Shown piece after piece: positions 1,298 through 59,464 of a DNA stretch of 64,000 nucleotides; the first letter of the stretch is position 1; every line of letters starts with the position of its first letter. The notes under the pieces are model-generated. The model saw only the letters and a program-made list of their open reading frames with translations, did not search any database and had not been told where the DNA came from. The stretch covers positions 32,001-96,000 of IMG/VR virus record IMGVR_UViG_3300014205_000172, one strand, 5' to 3'. The stretch is from a virus (lineage: Duplodnaviria; Caudoviricetes). Both the position numbers and the translations under genes were made by a program.

Positions 1298-2032
1298 ATG
1301 AACGAAAAACGCCGTAAGGTTACCGAGTTCATTCTCAAGAATTTCGATAAGATTCTTCCTGGGGATAAAACGAACTCTGAAAGTCTAAAGGCTGCTTTCG
1401 ACAAGATGTCTGACAGCGAGTTCGAGACGTACATCAAACGCCTTGCACCCGCTAAGACACCCGATGAAATCAAGCAGCGATTGTTCCTGCCATTCTACGT
1501 ACCCAACCTTCGTCCCAATGGGGTGCGTTTATCCATTGCCCGTAATTACCAAATTGCGCGTGACCTTGGTCGCAGCATTGAAGAACGATTGATCATGACC
1601 GATGGTGCTACAGGGCTTAAGTACATCACGCCACACGCTTATCCGGTTTATGATCTGCAAGTGCGTCGTCAAGCACAGACCGGTAGCAAGAAGCGTTCGA
1701 TCCCTGAGCATCACCAGCGGCTCGACGACCTGACCGATCAGCCGACAGTGGATTCAAAAGGTAGTCGGATCTCTTCACCTGAGTTCGGATCGCTGATTCA
1801 GAAGCGTCTGGACAATACCGTTACCGAACTGACGCACGCTCGTGGCGGTAACGCATTGGCAGCTCGTGAGTTCACGCGGGCATTGGTGGAAGATGGTGAG
1901 GTTAACCTTTCGCAATTGGAAGGGTTGGGTATTGCTCGTTCGACTAAGACCTTGTCGACGTTCCTGAACACTATGCTGATCGGCAATAACCTCGATCCGT
2001 CAACAAAGGTTCCAGATGATGCAAGAAAATAA
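1298..2032 (+). CDS. virion RNA polymerase beta subunit, C-terminal fragment (phiKZ gp149-like)
   Basis: LQVRRQAQTGSKKRSI...DDLTDQPTVDSKGSRISSPE matches the RpoB C-terminal K..R....T.QP..G....G.R.GEME pattern; size fits a split subunit. Confidence 0.8.
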   Translation: MNEKRRKVTEFILKNFDKILPGDKTNSESLKAAFDKMSDSEFETYIKRLAPAKTPDEIKQRLFLPFYVPNLRPNGVRLSIARNYQIARDLGRSIEERLIMTDGATGLKYITPHAYPVYDLQVRRQAQTGSKKRSIPEHHQRLDDLTDQPTVDSKGSRISSPEFGSLIQKRLDNTVTELTHARGGNALAAREFTRALVEDGEVNLSQLEGLGIARSTKTLSTFLNTMLIGNNLDPSTKVPDDARK

Positions 2033-2516
2033 AGGCAATGATTTTTTTGTGGATTTGGCAAAAGATGTAGCATTGCGCTACGCAATCCACGATGAGGCCG
2101 AACAGAAGGTCCGGTCGATTTACATTGAGTGCGCCAAGGTTGTTAATTGGCAAGCAAACATGAGTTCGGACAAGGCTGCCGATGAGGTACTCAATCACCT
2201 GCAAGTAGTCGGCGATAAAGCAAGTATGGTTATCAACATGACCAGTAGCTTCATGTTCAGAGCGGGGATTACCACTTTCCAACAACGCTTAGAACTGGCT
2301 ACCTTGCTTAGCGAGAGTGTTTCTTGGCCGCGTGATGTAAAAGAGTTCGGGGCTGTGCAGGCACGGTTAACGACCACGGCTGAAAATGCCCGTAACACGT
2401 TTACCGGTAGTCCGTGGATGATGTTCCTTTATCTGCTCAGCATGGCCGATGTCATTCAGGCTTTGGATGCTGCGCGTGTGAAACCAAAAGCCCCCGCTCC
2501 AAAACCAGCTACTTAA
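2016..2516 (+). CDS. hypothetical protein (166 aa)
   Basis: Overlaps the stop of the upstream gene; operon-like packing. Confidence 0.75.
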   Translation: MMQENKGNDFFVDLAKDVALRYAIHDEAEQKVRSIYIECAKVVNWQANMSSDKAADEVLNHLQVVGDKASMVINMTSSFMFRAGITTFQQRLELATLLSESVSWPRDVKEFGAVQARLTTTAENARNTFTGSPWMMFLYLLSMADVIQALDAARVKPKAPAPKPAT

Positions 2517-29228: not shown

Positions 29229-29825
29229 ATGGCTATCGTGATTACAGTGGATACCGAGGAAGAGAAGCAACAGGTCCTGGAAGCCTCACGCCACTTCCAT
29301 GATTTCAATATCGACACAGACATTCCCATGGTGATGATTCTGTCTCATCTGCATATGGCTCCACATCTGGTGGTCGTGAACCCAAGCGATGAGCTGAAAG
29401 ATAAGCGCACTGTCGAACTGCTTCAGCATCTCCACGGTGAACATCAGAAGGATGTTAATTGGAGTGAGATCACTAACCCACCGGCTATAAAACCAAGCGT
29501 GCTGATAGTCACCGATGACATTGACAAGGGTAACGCGTTCGCTAAGCAAAAGTTTCCTGATCTCGAAGTTCTGCTTATCAACCCCTTTCTAAAACTAGAC
29601 GGGTATGAGCAAGAAAAGGTTATTCTTTTGGTTATCCCTCAAGAAGATGTTTGGACGTTTAAAGGGACTTACGCTTCAGAAGAAAAGAAAATCGAATGGT
29701 TTAAAGCCTCAATCTTTCATCAAGAGGTTGGGATTCTGAATCGTTATCTTTCGTCTCTATTTATCCCATATTTCAACCACTGCTGCGTACTGGTAGCTGG
29801 TAAAGAAGATTCATTCGCCCTCTAA
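29229..29825 (+). CDS. hypothetical protein (198 aa)
   Basis: Start moved to ATG 29229 after GAGGG. Confidence 0.7.
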   Translation: MAIVITVDTEEEKQQVLEASRHFHDFNIDTDIPMVMILSHLHMAPHLVVVNPSDELKDKRTVELLQHLHGEHQKDVNWSEITNPPAIKPSVLIVTDDIDKGNAFAKQKFPDLEVLLINPFLKLDGYEQEKVILLVIPQEDVWTFKGTYASEEKKIEWFKASIFHQEVGILNRYLSSLFIPYFNHCCVLVAGKEDSFAL

Positions 29826-51223: not shown

Positions 51224-52228
51224 ATGACAACTGGTAACCTGATCCAAGCTCAAACCCGCAGCCTGACGTTCTACGCCGCTGGCGGTACCGCGGTCAACCT
51301 GTTGCGCGCCCACCGCTCGGATACGCCGAAGCACACTGATGCAATGGCTGATGAGAAGTACTGCTTCATCGACACCAGTATCGCTAACCTGCGTGACGTC
51401 ATCGAAGCCGATACTTTCGTTCTGGAAGGCACTGATGGTTCTGGTTCCGACCGTCCACGTAACGCCAAGGCTGTAATGGAAGCCATGCCGGCTATCCTGA
51501 ACCAATTCAAACCAGGCGATACCAACATCGTGATCTTCTCCGCCGCCGGCGGTACTGGTAGTGTGGCCGGTCCAATCATTCTGGAAGAACTGCTGAAGTC
51601 CAAGAAGAAAGTGTTTGCCATCGTCATCGGCACTCATGGTTCTCTCAAGGCTACCGCCAACACCATCGCTACCCTCACCGGCCTGGAAATGGCAGTGAAC
51701 CGCGTTGGGCGCTCCGTCGTCATGGCGTATCGTGAAAACGACCCTACCAAAAACAACGCCGGCAACAACGTTGTGCCGATGATGATCATGGAAGCCCTGT
51801 CCCTTCTCTGCTCCGGCAAGAACAACCAGCTGGACGGCGCCGACATTGGCAACATGATCGACTACCACACCGTTACTCACCACAAGCCTTCGCTGTCGAT
51901 GCTGGATGTATACGTCAACGAAGAGCAGCTGGTGAAAGAAAGCACCAATCCGATCGTACACATCGCACTGTTGCGTAACGAAGAAGCCATCACCCCGGCT
52001 ATCAATCCAGCCTATGGCAAGTCCGGCTATCTGCCAATGGAAGCCGCAGAACGCTACAAGGAGTCTTTCCACTTCGTAGTCAGCAATTCGCGTCTGAAGG
52101 GCGTGTTGTCTAACCTTCTGAAACGTCGTGAAGAACTGGAATCCGAACAGCGCGTAGTTGAGCGTCAAACCAGTCTTGTCGGTGATGGCGATGTCAAAGT
52201 CGATCAAGGCACCGGCCTGGTGTTCTAA
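51224..52228 (+). CDS. phuZ: phage tubulin PhuZ (spindle GTPase)
   Basis: YAAGGTAVNL, FIDTS, DGSGSDR, tubulin signature SAAGGTGSVAGP, T7-like QLDGADI, and a PhuZ-type C-terminus DQGTGLVF. Confidence 0.95.
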   Translation: MTTGNLIQAQTRSLTFYAAGGTAVNLLRAHRSDTPKHTDAMADEKYCFIDTSIANLRDVIEADTFVLEGTDGSGSDRPRNAKAVMEAMPAILNQFKPGDTNIVIFSAAGGTGSVAGPIILEELLKSKKKVFAIVIGTHGSLKATANTIATLTGLEMAVNRVGRSVVMAYRENDPTKNNAGNNVVPMMIMEALSLLCSGKNNQLDGADIGNMIDYHTVTHHKPSLSMLDVYVNEEQLVKESTNPIVHIALLRNEEAITPAINPAYGKSGYLPMEAAERYKESFHFVVSNSRLKGVLSNLLKRREELESEQRVVERQTSLVGDGDVKVDQGTGLVF

Positions 52229-52245
52229 GCAACACAACCGTTAAT

Positions 52246-52275
52246 GCGAGGCGGGGAAACCCGCCTCGTTTATGC
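52246..52275 (+). terminator. hairpin after phuZ (TATG-flanked family)
   Basis: GCGAGGCGGG-GAAA-CCCGCCTCGT followed by TTATG; short T-run. Confidence 0.6.
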
Positions 52276-52303
52276 TGTCTAACTATCAATAGAGGAATCT
52301 ATA

Positions 52304-52552
52304 ATGTCAACCTTGTTTTTCCGCTGCGAACGTTGTAATACACGGGACCACATGAAGGCATGCCCTCCATGCTCCGGTGGGCACCTTATTTGTTATCGCT
52401 GTCAGTTCAATAGCTGGCATGACCAGTTCCCAGAAGAACAATACGACAGCTCGTTTCATGAGGTTGTCAACCCCACTCCTGACTCGACCGTAAATACGTT
52501 TACGTCAATGGGTGGTGGCGGTCCCGCGGTTCCATGGGACTATGACAATTGA
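52304..52552 (+). CDS. small Cys-rich zinc-binding protein (82 aa)
   Basis: GAGGA SD; CERC, CPPC and H..CYRC. Confidence 0.7.
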   Translation: MSTLFFRCERCNTRDHMKACPPCSGGHLICYRCQFNSWHDQFPEEQYDSSFHEVVNPTPDSTVNTFTSMGGGGPAVPWDYDN

Positions 52553-52720
52553 ACCTAATGACCGGAGAGCTTAAATGCTCTCTAAGGTCGTTGACTTTCT
52601 TTTTGGTACATGGGTAAGGGTCTTGATCCGTATAGCGCTGATAGGTCGTCTGTAGCGCCTTTAATTGTATCTTTCCACAGAATCAGCAGATAATGTGGTC
52701 ATCGGAGAGTGAGTACCTCT

Positions 52721-53101
52721 ATGAAAGCTGTATTGATTGATGTAAACCCAGTGCTTGAAAGGCTGAGCAAACGTGAAGGTGTTGGCTTCAATGCACCCGT
52801 AATGGAAAGCTGGGTAGCCAGGACCTATGGTCGCCGATGGGACGTGCAGTGTATCAGCACTCGACTGCTCCATGACTTCGGTAAGTCAAAAGGTGGTGCT
52901 TTTGAACAACTGTCGTTTGCTAAGTCCATGGATGGTCTTGGCTACGATCTGATCGGTACGCTGCCGGCGCCGGGCGAGTTTAAAATGCCGCTCAATGGAG
53001 CAAAGAGCCCAACCTTCTCAGTTCATCTGTCGGATGATGGATTCTTGGTGATCGGAGATCCAAATGAAGTTAACCGCTACCGGCGACACCCAGCTGATTG
53101 A
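52721..53101 (+). CDS. array protein A
   Basis: AVLIDV...FSVHLSDDGFLVIG; start may instead be GTG 52709. Confidence 0.75.
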   Translation: MKAVLIDVNPVLERLSKREGVGFNAPVMESWVARTYGRRWDVQCISTRLLHDFGKSKGGAFEQLSFAKSMDGLGYDLIGTLPAPGEFKMPLNGAKSPTFSVHLSDDGFLVIGDPNEVNRYRRHPAD

Positions 53102-53507
53102 TTTCAGCGAGATAGTCCGCTGGACCGTCAAGACCATTAGTCGCAACATGCCCGGAAGGTGTATAGACGAGGATAAGGTTGAGAAGTGTGTTGGGTCAAT
53201 TCTTGACAACACCTTGACAATGAACATGAAATGGACAAAGGTTCATCTACAACCGCCAGAAGAGCATTATCTGGCAATGATGGATATCCCAGACTATCCA
53301 GGTGGGTGGCTTTTTATCCAAGACATCGTCGATCACATTACGGGACTTCTTGAAAACATTATAGACTTACCGACGTGGCGCATTGTGTCCATGAGGATAA
53401 TGGGATCATTTGCTCGTATTGAGTTAGATGAAGATTTTCGTGTAAAAGATTGGATGGAACATCATGCTAAGGAATATGGATTACGTGACGAGGTTAGAAG
53501 GTGGTAA
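53064..53507 (+). CDS. array protein B
   Basis: TQLIDF...WRIVSMRIMGSFARIEL; GGAG SD. Confidence 0.8.
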   Translation: MKLTATGDTQLIDFSEIVRWTVKTISRNMPGRCIDEDKVEKCVGSILDNTLTMNMKWTKVHLQPPEEHYLAMMDIPDYPGGWLFIQDIVDHITGLLENIIDLPTWRIVSMRIMGSFARIELDEDFRVKDWMEHHAKEYGLRDEVRRW

Positions 53508-54009
53508 CCAGTTCGTTACGCTGGATGTAGAATCCCAGGTCAATGAACTGACAGCCCTGCTGGAAGACCGCTACGATGATTGCTTTAAGCCTAGGCAGAA
53601 TGCTTACAAGCTGGTCAAGTCCCTTGTTCATCACATCACCAACCAGTGCACAGATTCTTTGTTCACCATCTGTAACCGTTATTCCAAGTCAACGCATGAG
53701 TATAACGCCCTGCTGTCTGCTGTAGTCCGCTATGATCACGAATTCAGACAGTCTTTAAATGAACTAGCGGGCGCCGATAACATCATTGGCCAGGTGAGGT
53801 TTTCAGAAGAAACAGAATTCATGGTTGTTCAAATATTTACATTGGATAATCGCTATGGCCAAGAAAGATTTGACAAATACATCGACTCTCTCAAAGCCGA
53901 TGGACAGCCAGTTTCAAGAGACGTTGAACGACTCCTCGAAGAATGGCGGTCCATTGACACGGACTTTCATTTACGACATCAAGGAATTGATGGTAGACGA
54001 GCTTTCTGA
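53476..54009 (+). CDS. array protein C
   Basis: FVTLDV...GQVRFSEETEFMVVQI; start ATG 53476 after TAAGGA. Confidence 0.75.
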   Translation: MDYVTRLEGGNQFVTLDVESQVNELTALLEDRYDDCFKPRQNAYKLVKSLVHHITNQCTDSLFTICNRYSKSTHEYNALLSAVVRYDHEFRQSLNELAGADNIIGQVRFSEETEFMVVQIFTLDNRYGQERFDKYIDSLKADGQPVSRDVERLLEEWRSIDTDFHLRHQGIDGRRAF

Positions 54010-54292
54010 TCAGGTCTTAATTGCACAAGACGCTTTAATCAAATCGTCACTTACCTATCTGTTGTTTGATGACGCTACGGAGTGGACCAGGTTAGGTGAG
54101 AAGTTCTCGACCAACCCTGCTGATGATGTCCCGCTAGGGTTCTACATGGATACCTGGTGGATGGATCACGCTGAGGCAATGAATAGCCTCTTCGCCGATC
54201 TGATAGCCATCCGGCCATTCCGTTGGGTCAGTGTCGTGGTGACAGACGATTTCGCTAAGATCACGGTGTATCCGACTGAGGATCGTTCATGA
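53900..54292 (+). CDS. array protein D
   Basis: TFIYDI...WVSVVVTDDFAKITV; start uncertain (ATG 53900 or a later TTG). Confidence 0.7.
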   Translation: MDSQFQETLNDSSKNGGPLTRTFIYDIKELMVDELSDQVLIAQDALIKSSLTYLLFDDATEWTRLGEKFSTNPADDVPLGFYMDTWWMDHAEAMNSLFADLIAIRPFRWVSVVVTDDFAKITVYPTEDRS

Positions 54293-54630
54293 CTGTAAGG
54301 ACCTTCTTAATTGATCTGGCCGACGCTCAGCTCCCAATAGGGTTCGGCTTCCCAGATCTGGGGGTCGACAATACGGTGTTGTTTAATGCGATGGTCAAAG
54401 CAGCTATTTGGGATGAAGATATCATTTACGATATGCGGGCCTGGTTTAATCAGTGCGGGTATTACTATCAAGGCGATAGTCTGATTGACCAGTATCATGG
54501 CCTAAGGACATTGTTACGAGATGTGATGAAACACCAAGACAGCCCCATCCCTAGTTTCTATGGCCGTCTATTGTCTACCGAGCTACTCGACCACAGATTT
54601 GCAGTTATCAATATCCAGGAGCTGACGTAA
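54289..54630 (+). CDS. array protein E
   Basis: TFLIDL...LLSTELLDHRFAVINI; ATGA overlap; GAGGA SD. Confidence 0.8.
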   Translation: MTVRTFLIDLADAQLPIGFGFPDLGVDNTVLFNAMVKAAIWDEDIIYDMRAWFNQCGYYYQGDSLIDQYHGLRTLLRDVMKHQDSPIPSFYGRLLSTELLDHRFAVINIQELT

Positions 54631-55022
54631 TGACACAGTCAGTCATCATTGAAATCAGAAGCGACATAGCCGAGTCTATCGACCGACTCGGTGATTACAT
54701 CCCCGAAGGCGACCGCAATCACTTTGTTTCTAGCGCTATGGGTATCGTTGTGGCAAACATCTTGCACGATGATAACAATGAAGCAGCACTTGATGCAATG
54801 GACCGCCTTGTTACAAACGCAGGTCTTTCCAAACCTAATGAGGCGTCAAACCTTTTAGGTGAAATGCTGGTGCTGGGCAATGTCTTTAAAGAGACATACA
54901 GGCATCATGATGAAACGTTTAAAGCCCTGGAGAAATTACTCCCCAATGATCTTAGGGTGGGTCTTGATGAGATATTTCATGTCGAGATCTCCTCAGGTGG
55001 AGATTTCTTGAGGATTCGCTGA
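54630..55022 (+). CDS. array protein F
   Basis: SVIIEI...IFHVEISSGGDFLRIR; TAATG overlap; AGGAG SD. Confidence 0.8.
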   Translation: MTQSVIIEIRSDIAESIDRLGDYIPEGDRNHFVSSAMGIVVANILHDDNNEAALDAMDRLVTNAGLSKPNEASNLLGEMLVLGNVFKETYRHHDETFKALEKLLPNDLRVGLDEIFHVEISSGGDFLRIR

Positions 55023-55414
55023 TGCCCTTTTTCATTATCAACCTAGACAAGGAGGCGATCAGCGACCTGCAAGAGGTCGCTGATCGCCTTATGCACTTAG
55101 ATGAGTATTGTGGTGAAGACCGATCGGTCGCTATGTCTGATCTGGTTGATGCATTACTACACTACTGGCTGATTGCCGACTTTGATAGACTGGATCTGAT
55201 GCTCGATGATCTCAAACAAGACCGACCCTTATTCAGGGATGGTGAAATCATCGAAGCCTTCTATCGGCTGGCTAACCCGCAGCGGTCAGGCTACCGGGAC
55301 TTAACTTCTAGCTCCATAGATGTGCAACGTCAGTTGTTAGAGATTGATGAAATCATTACCTACGATGTGAAGGTAGATACTTTCTTTAACACGATTGGCT
55401 TCGGGATATATTAA
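55022..55414 (+). CDS. array protein G
   Basis: FFIINL...ITYDVKVDTFFNTIGFGI; TGATG overlap; GAGGA SD. Confidence 0.8.
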   Translation: MPFFIINLDKEAISDLQEVADRLMHLDEYCGEDRSVAMSDLVDALLHYWLIADFDRLDLMLDDLKQDRPLFRDGEIIEAFYRLANPQRSGYRDLTSSSIDVQRQLLEIDEIITYDVKVDTFFNTIGFGIY

Positions 55415-55424
55415 AGAGGTACCC

Positions 55425-55739
55425 ATGCAGTCAAACCGATTTATCTTCGATACACCTAAGGGAGGTTCCATTAACCTTCCTATGTTACAAAAGCTCATTA
55501 CGTTTTGGGCGACCGAGATCAACGACCAACACCAGTTCTTAAATGATGTACAGGAACAGTTCTTACGCCGGGCGTATCGCGCCAGTGGCGAAGACATTGA
55601 AAAATACACCGATATCGTTATGGAAATCTTCGGTTACAGCGGGATCATGACGGAGCTGATTAAAGAAAATCAGATCTTGAATGAGATCACCTGTAACGTC
55701 GATAACGATTTTGGTGAAGTGATTCTGGAGTGGTTATGA
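55425..55739 (+). CDS. array protein H
   Basis: RFIFDT...ITCNVDNDFGEVILEW; ATG 55425 after AGAGGT. Confidence 0.75.
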   Translation: MQSNRFIFDTPKGGSINLPMLQKLITFWATEINDQHQFLNDVQEQFLRRAYRASGEDIEKYTDIVMEIFGYSGIMTELIKENQILNEITCNVDNDFGEVILEWL

Positions 55740-56098
55740 AAGCGCTCGTAAGGGTAGAGAAAGATACAGCGTTCCTAGTCAATGATTCACGCCTAAATGC
55801 ATTCAGCGAAGCTGATATTAAAACGTATCTATGGCTTTTGAAAGATGTGGCTACTGACGTCACTGAACGTATTCCTATTTCATTACTTGTACCAGTCTGG
55901 CCCCCGCATGAGATGCTGTTAAAAGAATTTAGCGATTCAGCACCTGTCCGCACTCTGTATAGTGTGTTGGAAGATGTTCTTTCTAACGCGGGTTATTCAT
56001 TGGGTGTGCTTACCACACTTGAGGTCGAGAAACATGAACCGACTGAACTCACAGTCTTTAAGGCCCAGACTCGATTCAGAGTCTACACGCTGCACTGA
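55736..56098 (+). CDS. array protein I (divergent member)
   Basis: AFLVND...LTTLEVEKH...RFRVYTL; ATGA overlap; GGAG SD. Confidence 0.7.
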   Translation: MKALVRVEKDTAFLVNDSRLNAFSEADIKTYLWLLKDVATDVTERIPISLLVPVWPPHEMLLKEFSDSAPVRTLYSVLEDVLSNAGYSLGVLTTLEVEKHEPTELTVFKAQTRFRVYTLH

Positions 56099-56513
56099 AA
56101 CGTATCTGTTTGATTTCACAGACGAAGTTGGGAAGTTTGTAGATAACTCCGACTGTTCGGTAGAGGACCTGGGGTACAAGGTTGAATCAATCATCACTTT
56201 CTTCCTAAATGGTTCTTCTGATATTGAGGCAGTTGTCGATGTATTCTGGAAGAACATGTACGCGGGCACTCCAAAGGACGCGCTGATCTTAGCGAGCAAT
56301 GCTGTAGGGCAGCTGTATCCGGGCATGTTGACTCAAATCAAATCACAGGGTCTGACACACCAGTGCATTATTGACATGAGTGTTAAGTACACCGAAGATA
56401 CCGGCCGTGGAATGATTGAATGCCTGGTCTTGGTAAAAGTAAATGGTCGGGGAGTGGGGAATGGATTATCAGCGAACGGTGGGTTATTGCCCAGGCTTGG
56501 CGGCCAAGATTGA
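56034..56513 (+). CDS. array protein J
   Basis: TYLFDF...IIDMSVKY...IECLVLVKV; ATG 56034 after GAGGT. Confidence 0.7.
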   Translation: MNRLNSQSLRPRLDSESTRCTETYLFDFTDEVGKFVDNSDCSVEDLGYKVESIITFFLNGSSDIEAVVDVFWKNMYAGTPKDALILASNAVGQLYPGMLTQIKSQGLTHQCIIDMSVKYTEDTGRGMIECLVLVKVNGRGVGNGLSANGGLLPRLGGQD

Positions 56514-56880
56514 AGAGCTGGTAGCCGAAAGGCTCACCTACGAATACTTCGATGATCCGATCAGCGATGCTCGGTTCGAATTGCAACTGATGCATGACCG
56601 CCGGCTTTATCGTCAGGAACTGTTGCGGGCATTGGGTAGTGTTCTGACACCAAGCGACATGCAAGATGCGGTAGAAGACATTTGCGACTTCGTTTCAGAT
56701 GAAACACTTCAAGCATTGCTAATGATGTACAGGCCATTTGTAATTCGGGTTAGTGATGATGATTTTTACGTGGCTGATTATTTAGAGGTGAATAATACAG
56801 GTAAGTCTGTATTCTTTAAACTCGGGACGCCAGAACATGAAGCTCGATTCAACAACCCTGAATGCTACGCTAAGCTTTGA
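56461..56880 (+). CDS. array protein K (divergent member)
   Basis: C-terminal FYVADYLEVNNTGKSVFFKL; ATG 56461 after GGGAG. Confidence 0.7.
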   Translation: MDYQRTVGYCPGLAAKIEELVAERLTYEYFDDPISDARFELQLMHDRRLYRQELLRALGSVLTPSDMQDAVEDICDFVSDETLQALLMMYRPFVIRVSDDDFYVADYLEVNNTGKSVFFKLGTPEHEARFNNPECYAKL

Positions 56881-57229
56881 AACATACGCCGGCGTCAAGT
56901 ACAATCACATGAAGTTCATTGGGATGGTTGACGCCGTGACCATGATGGCATTGGGTCAGGACGCAGTTGGTCTGCATTTACAAAACAAACCTTACCTGCC
57001 AGACCCTAAGCCAGAAGCCTACACTGACTATAGTTACGCTATATTCGTCGGGTCTGAAAAGCAACGGGTCTATCTGGGGGTACCTTGGGTACGCGAAGAT
57101 TCGATCGTCAACAACGGTCAACCGAACTACATGATGACCATCATTGCCCCAACACCAGCGCAGCTCGACACACTGCGCTCGATGGCAGTGGCATCAGGTA
57201 TCGAAAACTTTACACTCAAAGCTATTTAA
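56837..57229 (+). CDS. conserved jumbo-phage protein upstream of the DNA polymerase (130 aa; phiKZ gp49-like)
   Basis: LSFETY...PYLP...YSY...LGVPWVREDSI; beta-rich and unlike the array proteins. Confidence 0.7.
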   Translation: MKLDSTTLNATLSFETYAGVKYNHMKFIGMVDAVTMMALGQDAVGLHLQNKPYLPDPKPEAYTDYSYAIFVGSEKQRVYLGVPWVREDSIVNNGQPNYMMTIIAPTPAQLDTLRSMAVASGIENFTLKAI

Positions 57230-57235
57230 TTCCGA

Positions 57236-57285
57236 CATAAGCCAGCTCCTTAGGGGGTTGGCGTTATGCCGCCATTTCTTTTTTT
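57236..57285 (+). terminator. intrinsic terminator with CATA/TATG flanks
   Basis: CATAA-GCCAGCTCC-TTAG-GGGGTTGGC-GTTATG followed by a T-run. Confidence 0.75.
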
Positions 57286-57334
57286 ACTTGGGTTACCTAT
57301 CTTACATACGCCTTAGCCCCATGGACATAGTCAA

Positions 57335-59464
57335 ATGTCAACCAGTCAGAATCCGTTCATTCGTGATCACGCCGATTACAAACGTGACATCGACATCAAG
57401 CCAGCCGTAATCGACCAAATTTCAAAGTACATCAGCCTGCGTCTAAAAATCAGCCACAAGCAAGCAACCGAATGGATGTTGGAGAAACTTAAAGACCCGC
57501 AATGGAGAATTAAGGACCCAACTCTGGAACGTTTGCTGCGTAAAGGCCCAGGCTGGCGTATCGAGGATGAGACTACGTTCTTGTCCTACATTGAAGAGAT
57601 CATCGACAATAACTGGATCTTGTCGCCCGCACTGGTCGCGTACAAGCAAGCAGAAGATGAACTCTCTCCAATTGCTGAATGGCAAGAAGATAACATCGCT
57701 GCGCGTAAGAAGTCTAAGACTAACATGTTTGTGCTTAAACAAGCAGGTCAGTTGCTTAAGTCCGCTCTTGCCGACTATGACCAAAACGCCCGGAAGATTC
57801 GAATCAACGCCGTTTCTGGACAGCATGGTTCAGAAGGCAACCCTCTTTATCAAGCTACTGGTCACTACAGCCTCACCGCACTCTGCCGAGCTGCAGCAGG
57901 GTATGGTAACGGTACCGTAGAGAGGTTCCTGACGGGGAGTAAACACTACCACACGCCAGAGATAGCAAAAGCGAATCTGGTAGCGATCTTGACGATGGAA
58001 GACAAAGATCGCTTTAAAGAAGCTATGGACATGTACGAGTTAGTCTATCCGTCTGTGGATGACGTGCTGGCAATGGTTGAGCGTTCGACTAGCCTGTACT
58101 GGGAGTCCCCAGAAGAGTCCGCCATCATTCGTGACTGCATTACCGGCATGACCGATCTGGAACGTGCAATCGTTACCTATTCGGGTGACATGTTCCACTT
58201 GGCTAAGTACAACCCTGACATCATTCGTGAGTTCATGGGTGAGATGATCATTGATGATATCTCCACAATGCCTGAAGTAAATACCGACGCTGAGCTCAAA
58301 ACAATGAACTCAACAGACGTGGCGTACATCAATGCCTTGTGCGCTGACATCATGATCGGCTCTGACCACAAACGGGTTAAGGTCGATGATCCTGCTGGTT
58401 GGCAAGTGATTGGTAAAACAGCACGACGCTTTAAGGACGTGATGAGCCGGTTCCGCCCACTCATCTCCACCTTCTTTGTGCCACGTCACTTACCACCCAC
58501 TGTAGCGTCTCTGAAGGGCATTCAGCGCCGTGCATGTCTGGCGGCCGATACCGACTCCTCTATCTTTACCTGTGAGTCTTGGGTGAAGTGGTATTCGGGT
58601 GATCTGGTGCGTGGGCGTACTCAGGACCGTATCTGGTATCTGACCACCTACATGGCGTGTCAGTGTATCGCTCACTCGCTGGCTATGTTGTCAGCTAACG
58701 TGGGTGTGGAAGCGAAGAACCTCTTCCGCCTTGCGATGAAGAACGAATACGCATTCCCTGTATTCGCTCTGACTAACTTGGCTAAGCATTACTTCTCACT
58801 GATCTCGATGCGTGAGGGTAACGTTTACGAGAAGATGGCGCTTGAGATCAAAGGGGTAGAACTGCGTGGATCGACCATGCCTAAAGAAACCCTGGATGCA
58901 ATGAGCGACTTAATGGAAGAAATCCTCAATGCCGTTAACGAAGGTCGTAAGCTTAACGCTAAGGCTATGCTGACCGCTATTGCCGAACGTGAGATTGAAA
59001 CCATTCGGTCTATCAAGCGCGGTGAGTATAAGTACCTCAAGTCAGCCCAGATCAAACCCAATAGTGACAAGATCGTTCACTTTCAACTGTGGCAAGAAGT
59101 ATTTGCCCCTAAATACGGTGACTCCGTACAGCCACCATTCCCAGTGGTGAAGGTAACAACTGAGCTGACTAACAAGACCTTGACTAAGGAATGGTTGGAC
59201 AGCATTGAAGACCGAGAACTGGCTAATCGGATGATTGCATGGTTTAGCCGAACAGGTCGTGACAAACTACCCACCATGTACTTACCCACTCAGATTGTGC
59301 GTAACAGTGGACTACCTGTGGAGATTCAGGAAGCTGCTAACGTACGCAAGTTGGCCTACCAGATCAATAGTGGTTTCTACCGCCTCTTGGAGTCTACTGG
59401 CCTTGCTATCGTTGACCGTAACCATCATCGCCTTGTTCACGACTTCTTGAGGATGACTGCATGA
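57335..59464 (+). CDS. family B DNA polymerase, polymerase subunit of the split enzyme (phiKZ gp50-like)
   Basis: Motif B QNARKIRINAVSG, motif C AADTDSSIF, MKNEY, AKHYF and EIKGVELR; no N-terminal exonuclease domain seen. Confidence 0.9.
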   Translation: MSTSQNPFIRDHADYKRDIDIKPAVIDQISKYISLRLKISHKQATEWMLEKLKDPQWRIKDPTLERLLRKGPGWRIEDETTFLSYIEEIIDNNWILSPALVAYKQAEDELSPIAEWQEDNIAARKKSKTNMFVLKQAGQLLKSALADYDQNARKIRINAVSGQHGSEGNPLYQATGHYSLTALCRAAAGYGNGTVERFLTGSKHYHTPEIAKANLVAILTMEDKDRFKEAMDMYELVYPSVDDVLAMVERSTSLYWESPEESAIIRDCITGMTDLERAIVTYSGDMFHLAKYNPDIIREFMGEMIIDDISTMPEVNTDAELKTMNSTDVAYINALCADIMIGSDHKRVKVDDPAGWQVIGKTARRFKDVMSRFRPLISTFFVPRHLPPTVASLKGIQRRACLAADTDSSIFTCESWVKWYSGDLVRGRTQDRIWYLTTYMACQCIAHSLAMLSANVGVEAKNLFRLAMKNEYAFPVFALTNLAKHYFSLISMREGNVYEKMALEIKGVELRGSTMPKETLDAMSDLMEEILNAVNEGRKLNAKAMLTAIAEREIETIRSIKRGEYKYLKSAQIKPNSDKIVHFQLWQEVFAPKYGDSVQPPFPVVKVTTELTNKTLTKEWLDSIEDRELANRMIAWFSRTGRDKLPTMYLPTQIVRNSGLPVEIQEAANVRKLAYQINSGFYRLLESTGLAIVDRNHHRLVHDFLRMTA

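Follow-up and report, generated by a model that had tools for sequence, protein, structure and literature searches.

A conserved array of small, fast-diverging proteins between phuZ and the DNA polymerase gene of a chimallivirus, and its putative counterpart in the phiKZ gp43-gp48 block

We analyzed a 64,000-nucleotide stretch of phage DNA, hereafter the window (bases 32001-96000 of the 237-kb IMG/VR virus record IMGVR_UViG_3300014205_000172), in which eleven small plus-strand open reading frames (ORFs) fill positions 52721-56880, between phuZ and the DNA polymerase gene. We find that these ORFs are real, conserved genes, and we propose that most of their products are copies of one strongly diverged domain, that the array corresponds to the gp43-gp48 block of phage phiKZ, and that its proteins would serve as adaptors for bringing proteins into the phage nucleus. 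To this explanation taken as a whole we assign a probability of about 0.5, and its parts differ widely in strength. How the shell of the phage nucleus selects the proteins that enter it is an open question. Genetic work in phiKZ has identified one core import factor, Imp1, besides a few that are specific to certain cargo (Imp2, Imp4 and Imp5).

The genes for PhuZ (51224-52228), the DNA polymerase (57335-59464) and chimallin lie in the order typical of the Chimalliviridae. The polymerase matches 294 jumbo-phage records and shares 40% identity with its counterpart in Pseudomonas phage pPa_SNUABM_DT01 (DT01) and about 33% with those of phiKZ-type phages; no cultured phage is close, and a megablast of the array stretch against 50,697 phage records gave no match. 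An Imp1 homolog is encoded in the genome of the window phage (G000:C1:106046-107452; tblastn, 1e-14). The G+C content is 0.46-0.48 over the array (52001-58000), compared with about 0.49-0.55 over much of the window. For comparison we used 79 chimallivirus loci, each with up to 10 kb upstream of the polymerase gene, and iterated a hidden Markov model (HMM) for each ORF over them; decoy-controlled profile searches were run over 1236 interval ORFs and their reversed copies. Two relatives are cited repeatedly, locus L003 (98% polymerase identity) and locus L004 (88%), as are the DT01 genes DT01_134, _136, _139, _140 and _141. The array ORFs are lettered A to K in gene order and L is the ORF directly after the array (lengths in amino acids, aa; overlaps in nucleotides, nt; pI, isoelectric point):

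A, 52721-53101, plus strand: 126 aa, pI 7.9; opens the array and is its best-conserved gene (88% to L004).
B, 53064-53507, plus strand: 147 aa, overlapping A by 38 nt; by sequence, ortholog of the N-terminal half of phiKZ gp43, PhiPA3 gp039 and Eowyn gp075.
C, 53464-54009, plus strand: 181 aa, overlapping B by 44 nt; B-like layout plus a conserved C-terminal helical extension.
D, 53900-54292, plus strand: about 130 aa, overlapping C by up to 110 nt; start uncertain, first 20 residues disordered.
E, 54289-54630, plus strand: 113 aa, joined to D through ATGA; present only in the window, L003 and L004.
F, 54630-55022, plus strand: 130 aa, joined to E through TAATG.
G, 55022-55414, plus strand: 130 aa, joined to F through TGATG; small family, absent from the L020/L021/L045 subclade.
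H, 55425-55739, plus strand: 104 aa from the ATG at 55425, which leaves a 10-nt gap after G; alternative TTG start at 55395.
I, 55730-56098, plus strand: about 120 aa, overlapping H by 4-10 nt; start GTG 55730 or ATG 55736.
J, 56034-56513, plus strand: about 159 aa, overlapping I by 65 nt; two genes upstream of L, the place of Imp2 (gp47) in phiKZ.
K, 56443-56880, plus strand: about 145 aa, overlapping J by 53-71 nt; directly upstream of L, the place of Imp4 (gp48) in phiKZ.
L, 56837-57229, plus strand: 130 aa, overlapping K by 44 nt; outside the family, phiKZ gp49 ortholog and last gene of the unit.

All eleven ORFs are intact in L003 (90-98% amino acid identity) and in L004 (42-88%, versus 88% for the polymerase and 75% for L), and the ratio of nonsynonymous to synonymous substitution rates (dN/dS) against L003 is 0.02-0.20 per ORF and 0.09 pooled. 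Given these ratios and the retention of the ORFs in relatives, the array ORFs are real genes under purifying selection. Overlaps of 1 to about 110 nt occur at nine or ten of the 11 junctions, the start codons of D, H, I, J and K being uncertain, and pI lies between 4.1 and 5.3 in every ORF except A. Coordinates, junctions, pI and dN/dS thus all agree with the tandem array of small, mostly acidic, overlapping ORFs described in a first-pass annotation made from the sequence alone, and we regard it as nearly certain that the array is a real conserved operon. Scans of ten members against Pfam and PHROGs returned nothing at E ≤ 0.01, and the array proteins contain no catalytic motif.

The array is also conserved in its arrangement, its gene order recurring in about 20 related chimalliviruses known only from uncultured material. 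Across 13-19 loci of a clade with 60-98% polymerase identity, each family has one member per locus in constant order, and 10 of the 11 genes keep this order in loci with 60-65% polymerase identity; I, for instance, has 1:1 orthologs in 14 loci. The exceptions concern copy number. Among the fetched loci, including L007-L025, E occurs only in the window, L003 and L004, and the L020/L021/L045 subclade has no room for G between F and H; the G family is small overall (a search of 1.84 billion proteins gave 22 cluster representatives at E ≤ 1e-3). When the family HMMs were run against the whole 237-kb genome each matched its own gene and no second copies, and in the iteration over the fetched loci no family recruited another. 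Fast-diverging, mostly acidic proteins (10 of 11) with no catalytic motif and no Pfam or PHROG family, two of them variable in copy number, could also be small binders for host takeover or anti-defense, each directed at one host factor, diversified by an arms race and located here by accident. We find this improbable, given the 1:1 syntenic orthologs throughout the clade, the presence of B in 38 fetched loci from several clades, the strong purifying selection, and the fact that phiKZ orf47 and orf48, which lie in the block that we equate with the array, tolerate no transposon insertions, unusual for accessory counter-defense genes.

Structure prediction points to a common fold in at least two members. 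AlphaFold2 models built with family alignments reached a mean predicted local distance difference test score (pLDDT) of 91.4 for B and 83.7 for D. The B model has a strand (residues 9-13), helices (15-28, 36-53, 66-72 and 81-97), a hairpin (106-113/116-124) and a further helix (125-138), and the D model a strand (20-26), helices (32-39, 43-56, 60-67 and 79-103) and a hairpin (107-115/118-125). In their models B and D therefore share the topology strand, four helices, beta-hairpin, and the layout predicted earlier (a strand, a helical middle and a terminal hairpin) is found in both. From the order of the strands, the hairpin and strand 1 probably form a three-stranded sheet. In Foldseek searches of BFVD with the two models, nearly all matches are chimallivirus hypothetical proteins (probability 0.9-1.0, several per phage), and 16 of the top 50 targets are common to both. 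The matches correspond to PhiPA3 gp038, gp039 and gp044 and, as judged by length, to gp038, gp039 and gp044 of Psa21 and to gp074, gp075, gp076 and gp083 of Eowyn (131, 187, 153 and 116 aa), and they fall in the same interval of the cultured phages as the array does in the window. As a control, the D model was searched against 350,542 PDB chains and gave nothing above probability 0.30; among the structures searched, the predicted fold has no solved counterpart. A crude Chou-Fasman profile (three-state accuracy, Q3, of 0.64-0.66 on B and D) is compatible with this topology for most other members. Searches of the ESM Atlas with D by shape and with G by features and shape gave nothing usable (the Atlas model of G has a pLDDT of 0.53). 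The proposed domain would span about 105-125 residues: a first strand that closes with a conserved acidic residue, then four helices and, at the C terminus, the hairpin.

The sequence motifs noticed in the first-pass annotation can be placed on these models, where the N-terminal motif (a hydrophobic run, D/E/N, then a hydrophobic residue) is strand beta1 and the C-terminal motif is the hairpin, with Phe at its turn. The N-terminal motif holds up well. It is conserved within the A, B, D, F, G, H and J families, the acidic residue after strand 1 recurs in 8-9 families, and the motif is present in 8 of the 11 array ORFs compared with 25 of 135 other small ORFs of the genome (Fisher P = 3e-4, for a pattern defined post hoc). 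The Phe at the turn does not. The turn residue is A, G, V, M or S in B-family orthologs and mostly F or Y in the A, D and F families, and because orthologs often lack Phe it is not a feature of the family. K, which had been judged a poor fit, also carries a hairpin-like ...SDDDF... motif.

Profile comparisons link several members by sequence. The most productive seed was the DT01_136 family, whose HMM found six cross-family matches (E 0.005-0.04) and zero decoys; the six are C-terminal halves of gp43 homologs, B proteins of the window clade, and F. In the last case F of L004 was found at E = 0.023, followed by F of L003 (1e-5) and of the window (1.7e-4), with no decoys; recruitment following a first family member counts as trivial throughout. 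After inclusion the DT01_136 profile found C at E = 0.003, again with no decoys, and the DT01_136/B/F profile recruited H of L021 (E = 0.04), L045 (2e-4) and L020 (1e-3), likewise free of decoys; the window's own H was not recruited. A deep G profile (21 representatives) matches F over its full length at E = 0.0013 with no decoys. Direct profile-profile alignments with hhalign are in line with these links: B against C (P = 6e-4), B against the DT01_136 family (P = 1.3e-4, 132 columns) and C against the DT01_136 family (P = 1.5e-3, 127 colinear columns). D and G form a weak link (hhalign P = 0.002; 8 and 9 bits over reversed decoys in the two directions), which the deeper G alignment of 21 representatives did not improve (P = 0.018). 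Decoy-controlled profiles thus support a relationship among B, C, F, G and H, and D is supported as a relative by its predicted fold, with weak sequence support from G.

For the remaining five members the evidence is consistent with membership and does not establish it. A has the layout, and weak Foldseek matches of the B model fall at its position (PhiPA3 gp038, Psa21 gp038 and Eowyn gp074); hhalign pairs its family with that of DT01_134 (P = 8e-6, 96 columns). E fits by layout and has a weak in-register N-terminal match to D (hhalign P = 0.009). I fits by layout; profile searches gave no reliable link from I to other members, and the I profile recruited reversed decoys. J and K likewise fit by layout, and K aligns with the DT01_140 family (hhalign P = 0.0011, 95 columns). 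That at least six members form one diverged family we consider probable; that all eleven do is doubtful. Of the single ancient, expanded family originally proposed for the whole array, the part comprising B, C, D, F, G and H has gained support from fold and profiles, and the part comprising A, E, I, J and K stands on layout as before.

A skeptical reader could take the array for unrelated ORFans that share a small alpha/beta layout by convergence, with the profile links as noise, and most pairwise and jackknife profile tests are indeed at noise level. Pairwise identity within the array is at background (best all-vs-all blastp E = 0.28), and iterating the profiles over all ORFs at E < 1e-3 brought no expansion. 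Several further tests weigh against the family proposed here. The HMM-HMM comparison suggested at the outset, besides the links among B, C, F, G and H given above, yielded at most 28% probability when the window families were aligned all-vs-all with hhalign (for B-C), most pairs being non-significant. A jackknife of each family against the merged others gave P = 0.005-0.4, no better than the control L (0.07), and a global test of real versus reversed HMMs over 110 ordered pairs gave P = 0.12. The inclusion threshold of E < 0.05 is lenient, and seeds from D, L, I and Imp4 recruited reversed decoys. Two of the eleven members were modeled, and the likeness of B and D is one of element order and match lists. 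Even so, we give chance resemblance of unrelated ORFans little credence. The B and D models have no solved counterpart and yet match the same chimallivirus proteins at probability 0.9-1.0, the DT01_136 seed produced its six cross-family matches with zero decoys, and the acidic residue after strand 1 recurs from family to family.

We next consider how the array relates to the model phages. The B family is present in the 38 fetched loci mentioned above, from the window clade through the phiKZ group. Its iterated HMM first detected other clades at 2.4e-12 (L054) and 5e-9, and phiKZ gp43 at E = 1.1e-4 before inclusion, in a match spanning the N-terminal 160 of the 357 residues of gp43; the final HMM finds Psa21 gp039 at 1e-41, PhiPA3 gp039 at 1e-35 and Eowyn gp075 at 2e-10. 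B and the gp43 homologs also have matching positions in the phuZ-to-polymerase block, and by sequence comparison B is the ortholog of the N-terminal half of gp43. At the other end, L matches phiKZ gp49 (blastp, 7e-6) and DT01_141 (5.5e-10) and, by sequence and by its position before the polymerase region, is the gp49 ortholog; its predicted structure is mostly beta, and it has diverged far less than the array. In an all-vs-all blastp of A-L with phiKZ gp40-53 and DT01 129-146, L alone matched. With B equated to the N-terminal half of gp43 and L to gp49, the array is the counterpart of the phiKZ gp43-gp48 block. Among the other families, D reaches the DT01 clade (first detection E = 1e-4), and J can be traced to DT01_139 (E = 1e-11 when first detected) and, by hhalign, to a third clade (P = 4e-10). 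Cultured phages look alike in this respect: between phuZ and the gp49 homolog of Klebsiella phage Eowyn lie eleven small genes that overlap, gp074-084.

The comparison with gp43 also bears on how the domain has been reused. The C-terminal half of gp43 aligns with the DT01_136 family over its full length (hhalign P = 2e-9), and at a later stage the DT01_136-based HMM finds residues 161-312 of Psa21 gp039 at E = 1e-37, so that phiKZ gp43, with an N-terminal half matching B and a C-terminal half matching the DT01_136 family, looks like the array domain duplicated in tandem. Two domain copies fused in phiKZ-type gp43 and separate in the window and in the DT01 clade, together with the tight overlap of the genes, would suit a reading in which translational coupling yields all subunits of a single obligate hetero-oligomer together. 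Because the domain copies are fused in gp43, B and C were chosen for a complex prediction; it gave a score of 0.00 and a mark of 0.32, without controls, and speaks neither for nor against binding. The gain and loss of E and G between close clades is hard to square with a fixed stoichiometry, the phenotypes of phiKZ Imp2 and Imp4 differ and are cargo-specific, and we therefore hold an obligate complex to be very unlikely.

Three observations on gene annotation in the model phages accompany this comparison. gp43 and its homologs, with their apparent duplication, lie at L002 8342-9415, L085 4387-5400 and L086 5067-5984. An open frame without RefSeq annotation lies in phiKZ at NC_004629.1 35857-36324, plus strand (L002 7858-8325), and is kept in eight phiKZ-like loci; in blastp it matches Psa21 gp038 (8e-15) and PhiPA3 gp038 (6e-8). 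The B model matches PhiPA3 gp038 at probability 0.72 and a 129-aa Psa21 protein at 0.54, both weak, and the phiKZ frame is likely an unannotated array member just upstream of gp43. In DT01, an unannotated D-family ortholog lies at about 129257-129631 of MW735835.1, plus strand (L001 6300-6674), where it overlaps the annotated PA10_00137 and PA10_00138 in another frame.

A possible function is suggested by two genes within the phiKZ block. Phage escape from an EcoRI-Nlp1 fusion was traced to orf47 (imp2), and from EcoRI-TopA in part to orf48 (imp4) (bioRxiv 10.1101/2024.03.27.586873), so that the import escape mutations named in the first-pass annotation are indeed those of imp2 and imp4, inside gp43-gp48. 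TopA import requires both Imp4 and Imp5, Imp2 itself enters the phiKZ nucleus, and the later literature treats Imp2, Imp4 and Imp5 as cargo-specific adaptors. In a transposon screen of phiKZ, neither orf47 nor orf48 yielded disruptive insertions. Relative to the gp49 homolog, J takes the position of gp47 and K that of gp48. Kokontis et al. concluded from a sequence search that Imp2, Imp4 and Imp5 seem confined to Pseudomonas phages, and our tblastn with gp47 found only Pseudomonas phages. The J HMM reaches phiKZ gp47 at E = 0.084 in 286 ORFs, with 85 colinear positions, and a weak chain leads from K through DT01_140 (P = 0.0011) to the phiKZ gp48 family (P = 0.006). In the fold comparison, the B model matches PhiPA3 gp044, the Imp2 homolog, at probability 0.90 (template modeling (TM) scores 0.49/0.44) and the D model matches it at 0.51; D also matches a 178-aa SL2 protein at 0.94 (TM 0.52/0.41), a length that fits SL2's 98.9% gp47 ortholog. 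From these data we infer a link of the array to Imp2 through position and a moderate fold match; the putative link of K to Imp4 is positional.

With Imp2 and Imp4 inside the block and the moderate fold match to Imp2, a role in adapting or co-importing cargo is the most likely of those considered. As it draws on position, on that fold match and on two characterized neighbors in a distant phage, we advance it tentatively. A role in shell growth or spindle attachment had also been suggested for the array, and nothing we found supports either. The neighboring gp49, reportedly an SH3-domain protein that partners the phage polymerase and gives a strong phenotype when knocked down (PMC12571901), raises another possibility: the array might encode replication accessory proteins acting alongside the replisome in the nucleus and unconnected with cargo selection. 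L as the gp49 ortholog, a unit closed by a terminator-like site immediately ahead of the polymerase gene, and the entry of phiKZ Imp2 itself into the nucleus would all fit. This we rate a poor prospect, since the array evolves far faster than the polymerase or L (42-68% identity to L004, against 88% and 75%) and Imp2 and Imp4, the only block members with known phenotypes, act on Nlp1 and TopA import. Beyond gp49, we found nothing on the block proteins gp43 and gp45-48 in papers on the core genome, the interaction network and antisense oligonucleotides; a per-protein table from size-exclusion chromatography-mass spectrometry lists gp43, 45, 46, 48 and 49.

Several of our results count against an import role for the whole array. 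A TM score of about 0.5 with a root-mean-square deviation above 7 Å is a moderate match, and the assignment of the Eowyn, SL2 and Psa21 matches to genes is by length. A merged J profile compared with the gp47 (Imp2) family gave hhalign P = 0.024, and a merged K and DT01_140 profile compared with the gp48 (Imp4) family gave P = 0.19. Functional data for the block are confined to phiKZ and PhiPA3, phiKZ gp43 has no reported function, and the copy-number variation of E and G would fit accessory genes too.

The array is flanked by elements that may delimit its transcription:

52304-52552, plus strand: 82-aa Cys-rich ORF (CxxC...CxxC...CxxC, zinc-ribbon-like) between phuZ and the array.
52564-52583, plus strand: conserved hairpin after the zinc-ribbon-like ORF, followed 13 nt later by a T-rich run (element to 52605).
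52667-52697, plus strand: 31-nt motif, about 25 nt upstream of the ATG of A.
57259-57284, plus strand: terminator-like hairpin with a T-run, after L and before the DNA polymerase gene (consensus scan).

The 31-nt motif is conserved in eight loci of the clade and occurs once in the 64-kb window, and it may be a promoter or operator of the array unit. Taking the upstream hairpin, this motif and the hairpin at 57259-57284 together, the stretch from A to L looks, by pattern and conservation, like one transcription unit; given the hairpin after L, the polymerase may have its own promoter. The zinc-ribbon-like family has 49 members in 33 fetched loci, with more than one copy in DT01. Elsewhere in the genome, other small ORFs carry the strand-plus-acidic motif, at window positions 2016-2516 and 29229-29825 and at about 215352-215810 of genome C1 (...FFVDL..., MAIVITVD... 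and MPLIFDL... are examples from dispersed small ORFs). These could be scattered members of the fold family; the HMMs give no link between them and the array families.

Based on these data, we propose that A-K plus L would form a conserved transcription unit whose proteins are small, mostly acidic and quick to diverge, with a single chimallivirus-specific domain as the basis of most; A, E, I, J and K may be further copies of it. The array proteins would act as cargo-specific adaptors or co-imported partners, each presenting particular phage or host proteins to the Imp1 machinery through a variable surface. If the cargo-specific factors of phiKZ belong to an old domain family that has expanded in this block of all chimalliviruses, every phage of the family would offer about ten candidates for import specificity, sets of cargo could be matched to the variable surfaces of a single scaffold, and the conserved gp43 would gain a context. 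A bolder extension is that in every nucleus-forming phage the phuZ-to-polymerase array is one diversified set of import adaptors, each for its own cargo and all built on a single domain found only in phages, with Imp2, and perhaps Imp4, as the members caught so far. Each copy would then license a different cargo at Imp1, and much of what makes the phage nucleus selective would be encoded in the array; we think this unlikely. The block itself was already known. What is new here, and partly supported, is the view of the phiKZ gp43-gp48/Imp2-Imp4 block as a diverged domain family; we found no description of it as a single paralog family in the literature, as had been supposed. For this window alone the gain is modest, namely a defined operon, a fold family without a solved relative, and orthology anchors to the model phages.

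Comparison with known systems sets out both the likenesses and the differences. B shares with phiKZ gp43, PhiPA3 gp039 and 201phi2-1 gp75 a conserved W...G...DxR[IV]xxW end and the position in the block, but gp43 is about 340-370 aa long with two domain copies, whereas the window and the DT01 clade have separate genes. Imp2 (phiKZ gp47 and PhiPA3 gp044, acting in Nlp1 import) resembles J in position and in its small size, and Imp2 homologs match the B and D models at probability 0.5-0.94 with TM scores of 0.36-0.52; no sequence or profile similarity to Imp2 survives, between phages whose polymerases are about 33% identical. Imp4 (gp48) lies, like K, directly upstream of the gp49 homolog, but the direct profile comparison fails. 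L, as the ortholog of phiKZ gp49, closes the unit and stands outside the paralog family. Diverged tandem or dispersed copies are likewise found in phiKZ among the inner-body proteins gp93/162/163 (PF12699) and the baseplate proteins gp131-135. Those families, however, are virion proteins with recognizable Pfam or sequence similarity, whereas the array family is visible mainly by its predicted fold and is, as far as is known, non-virion.

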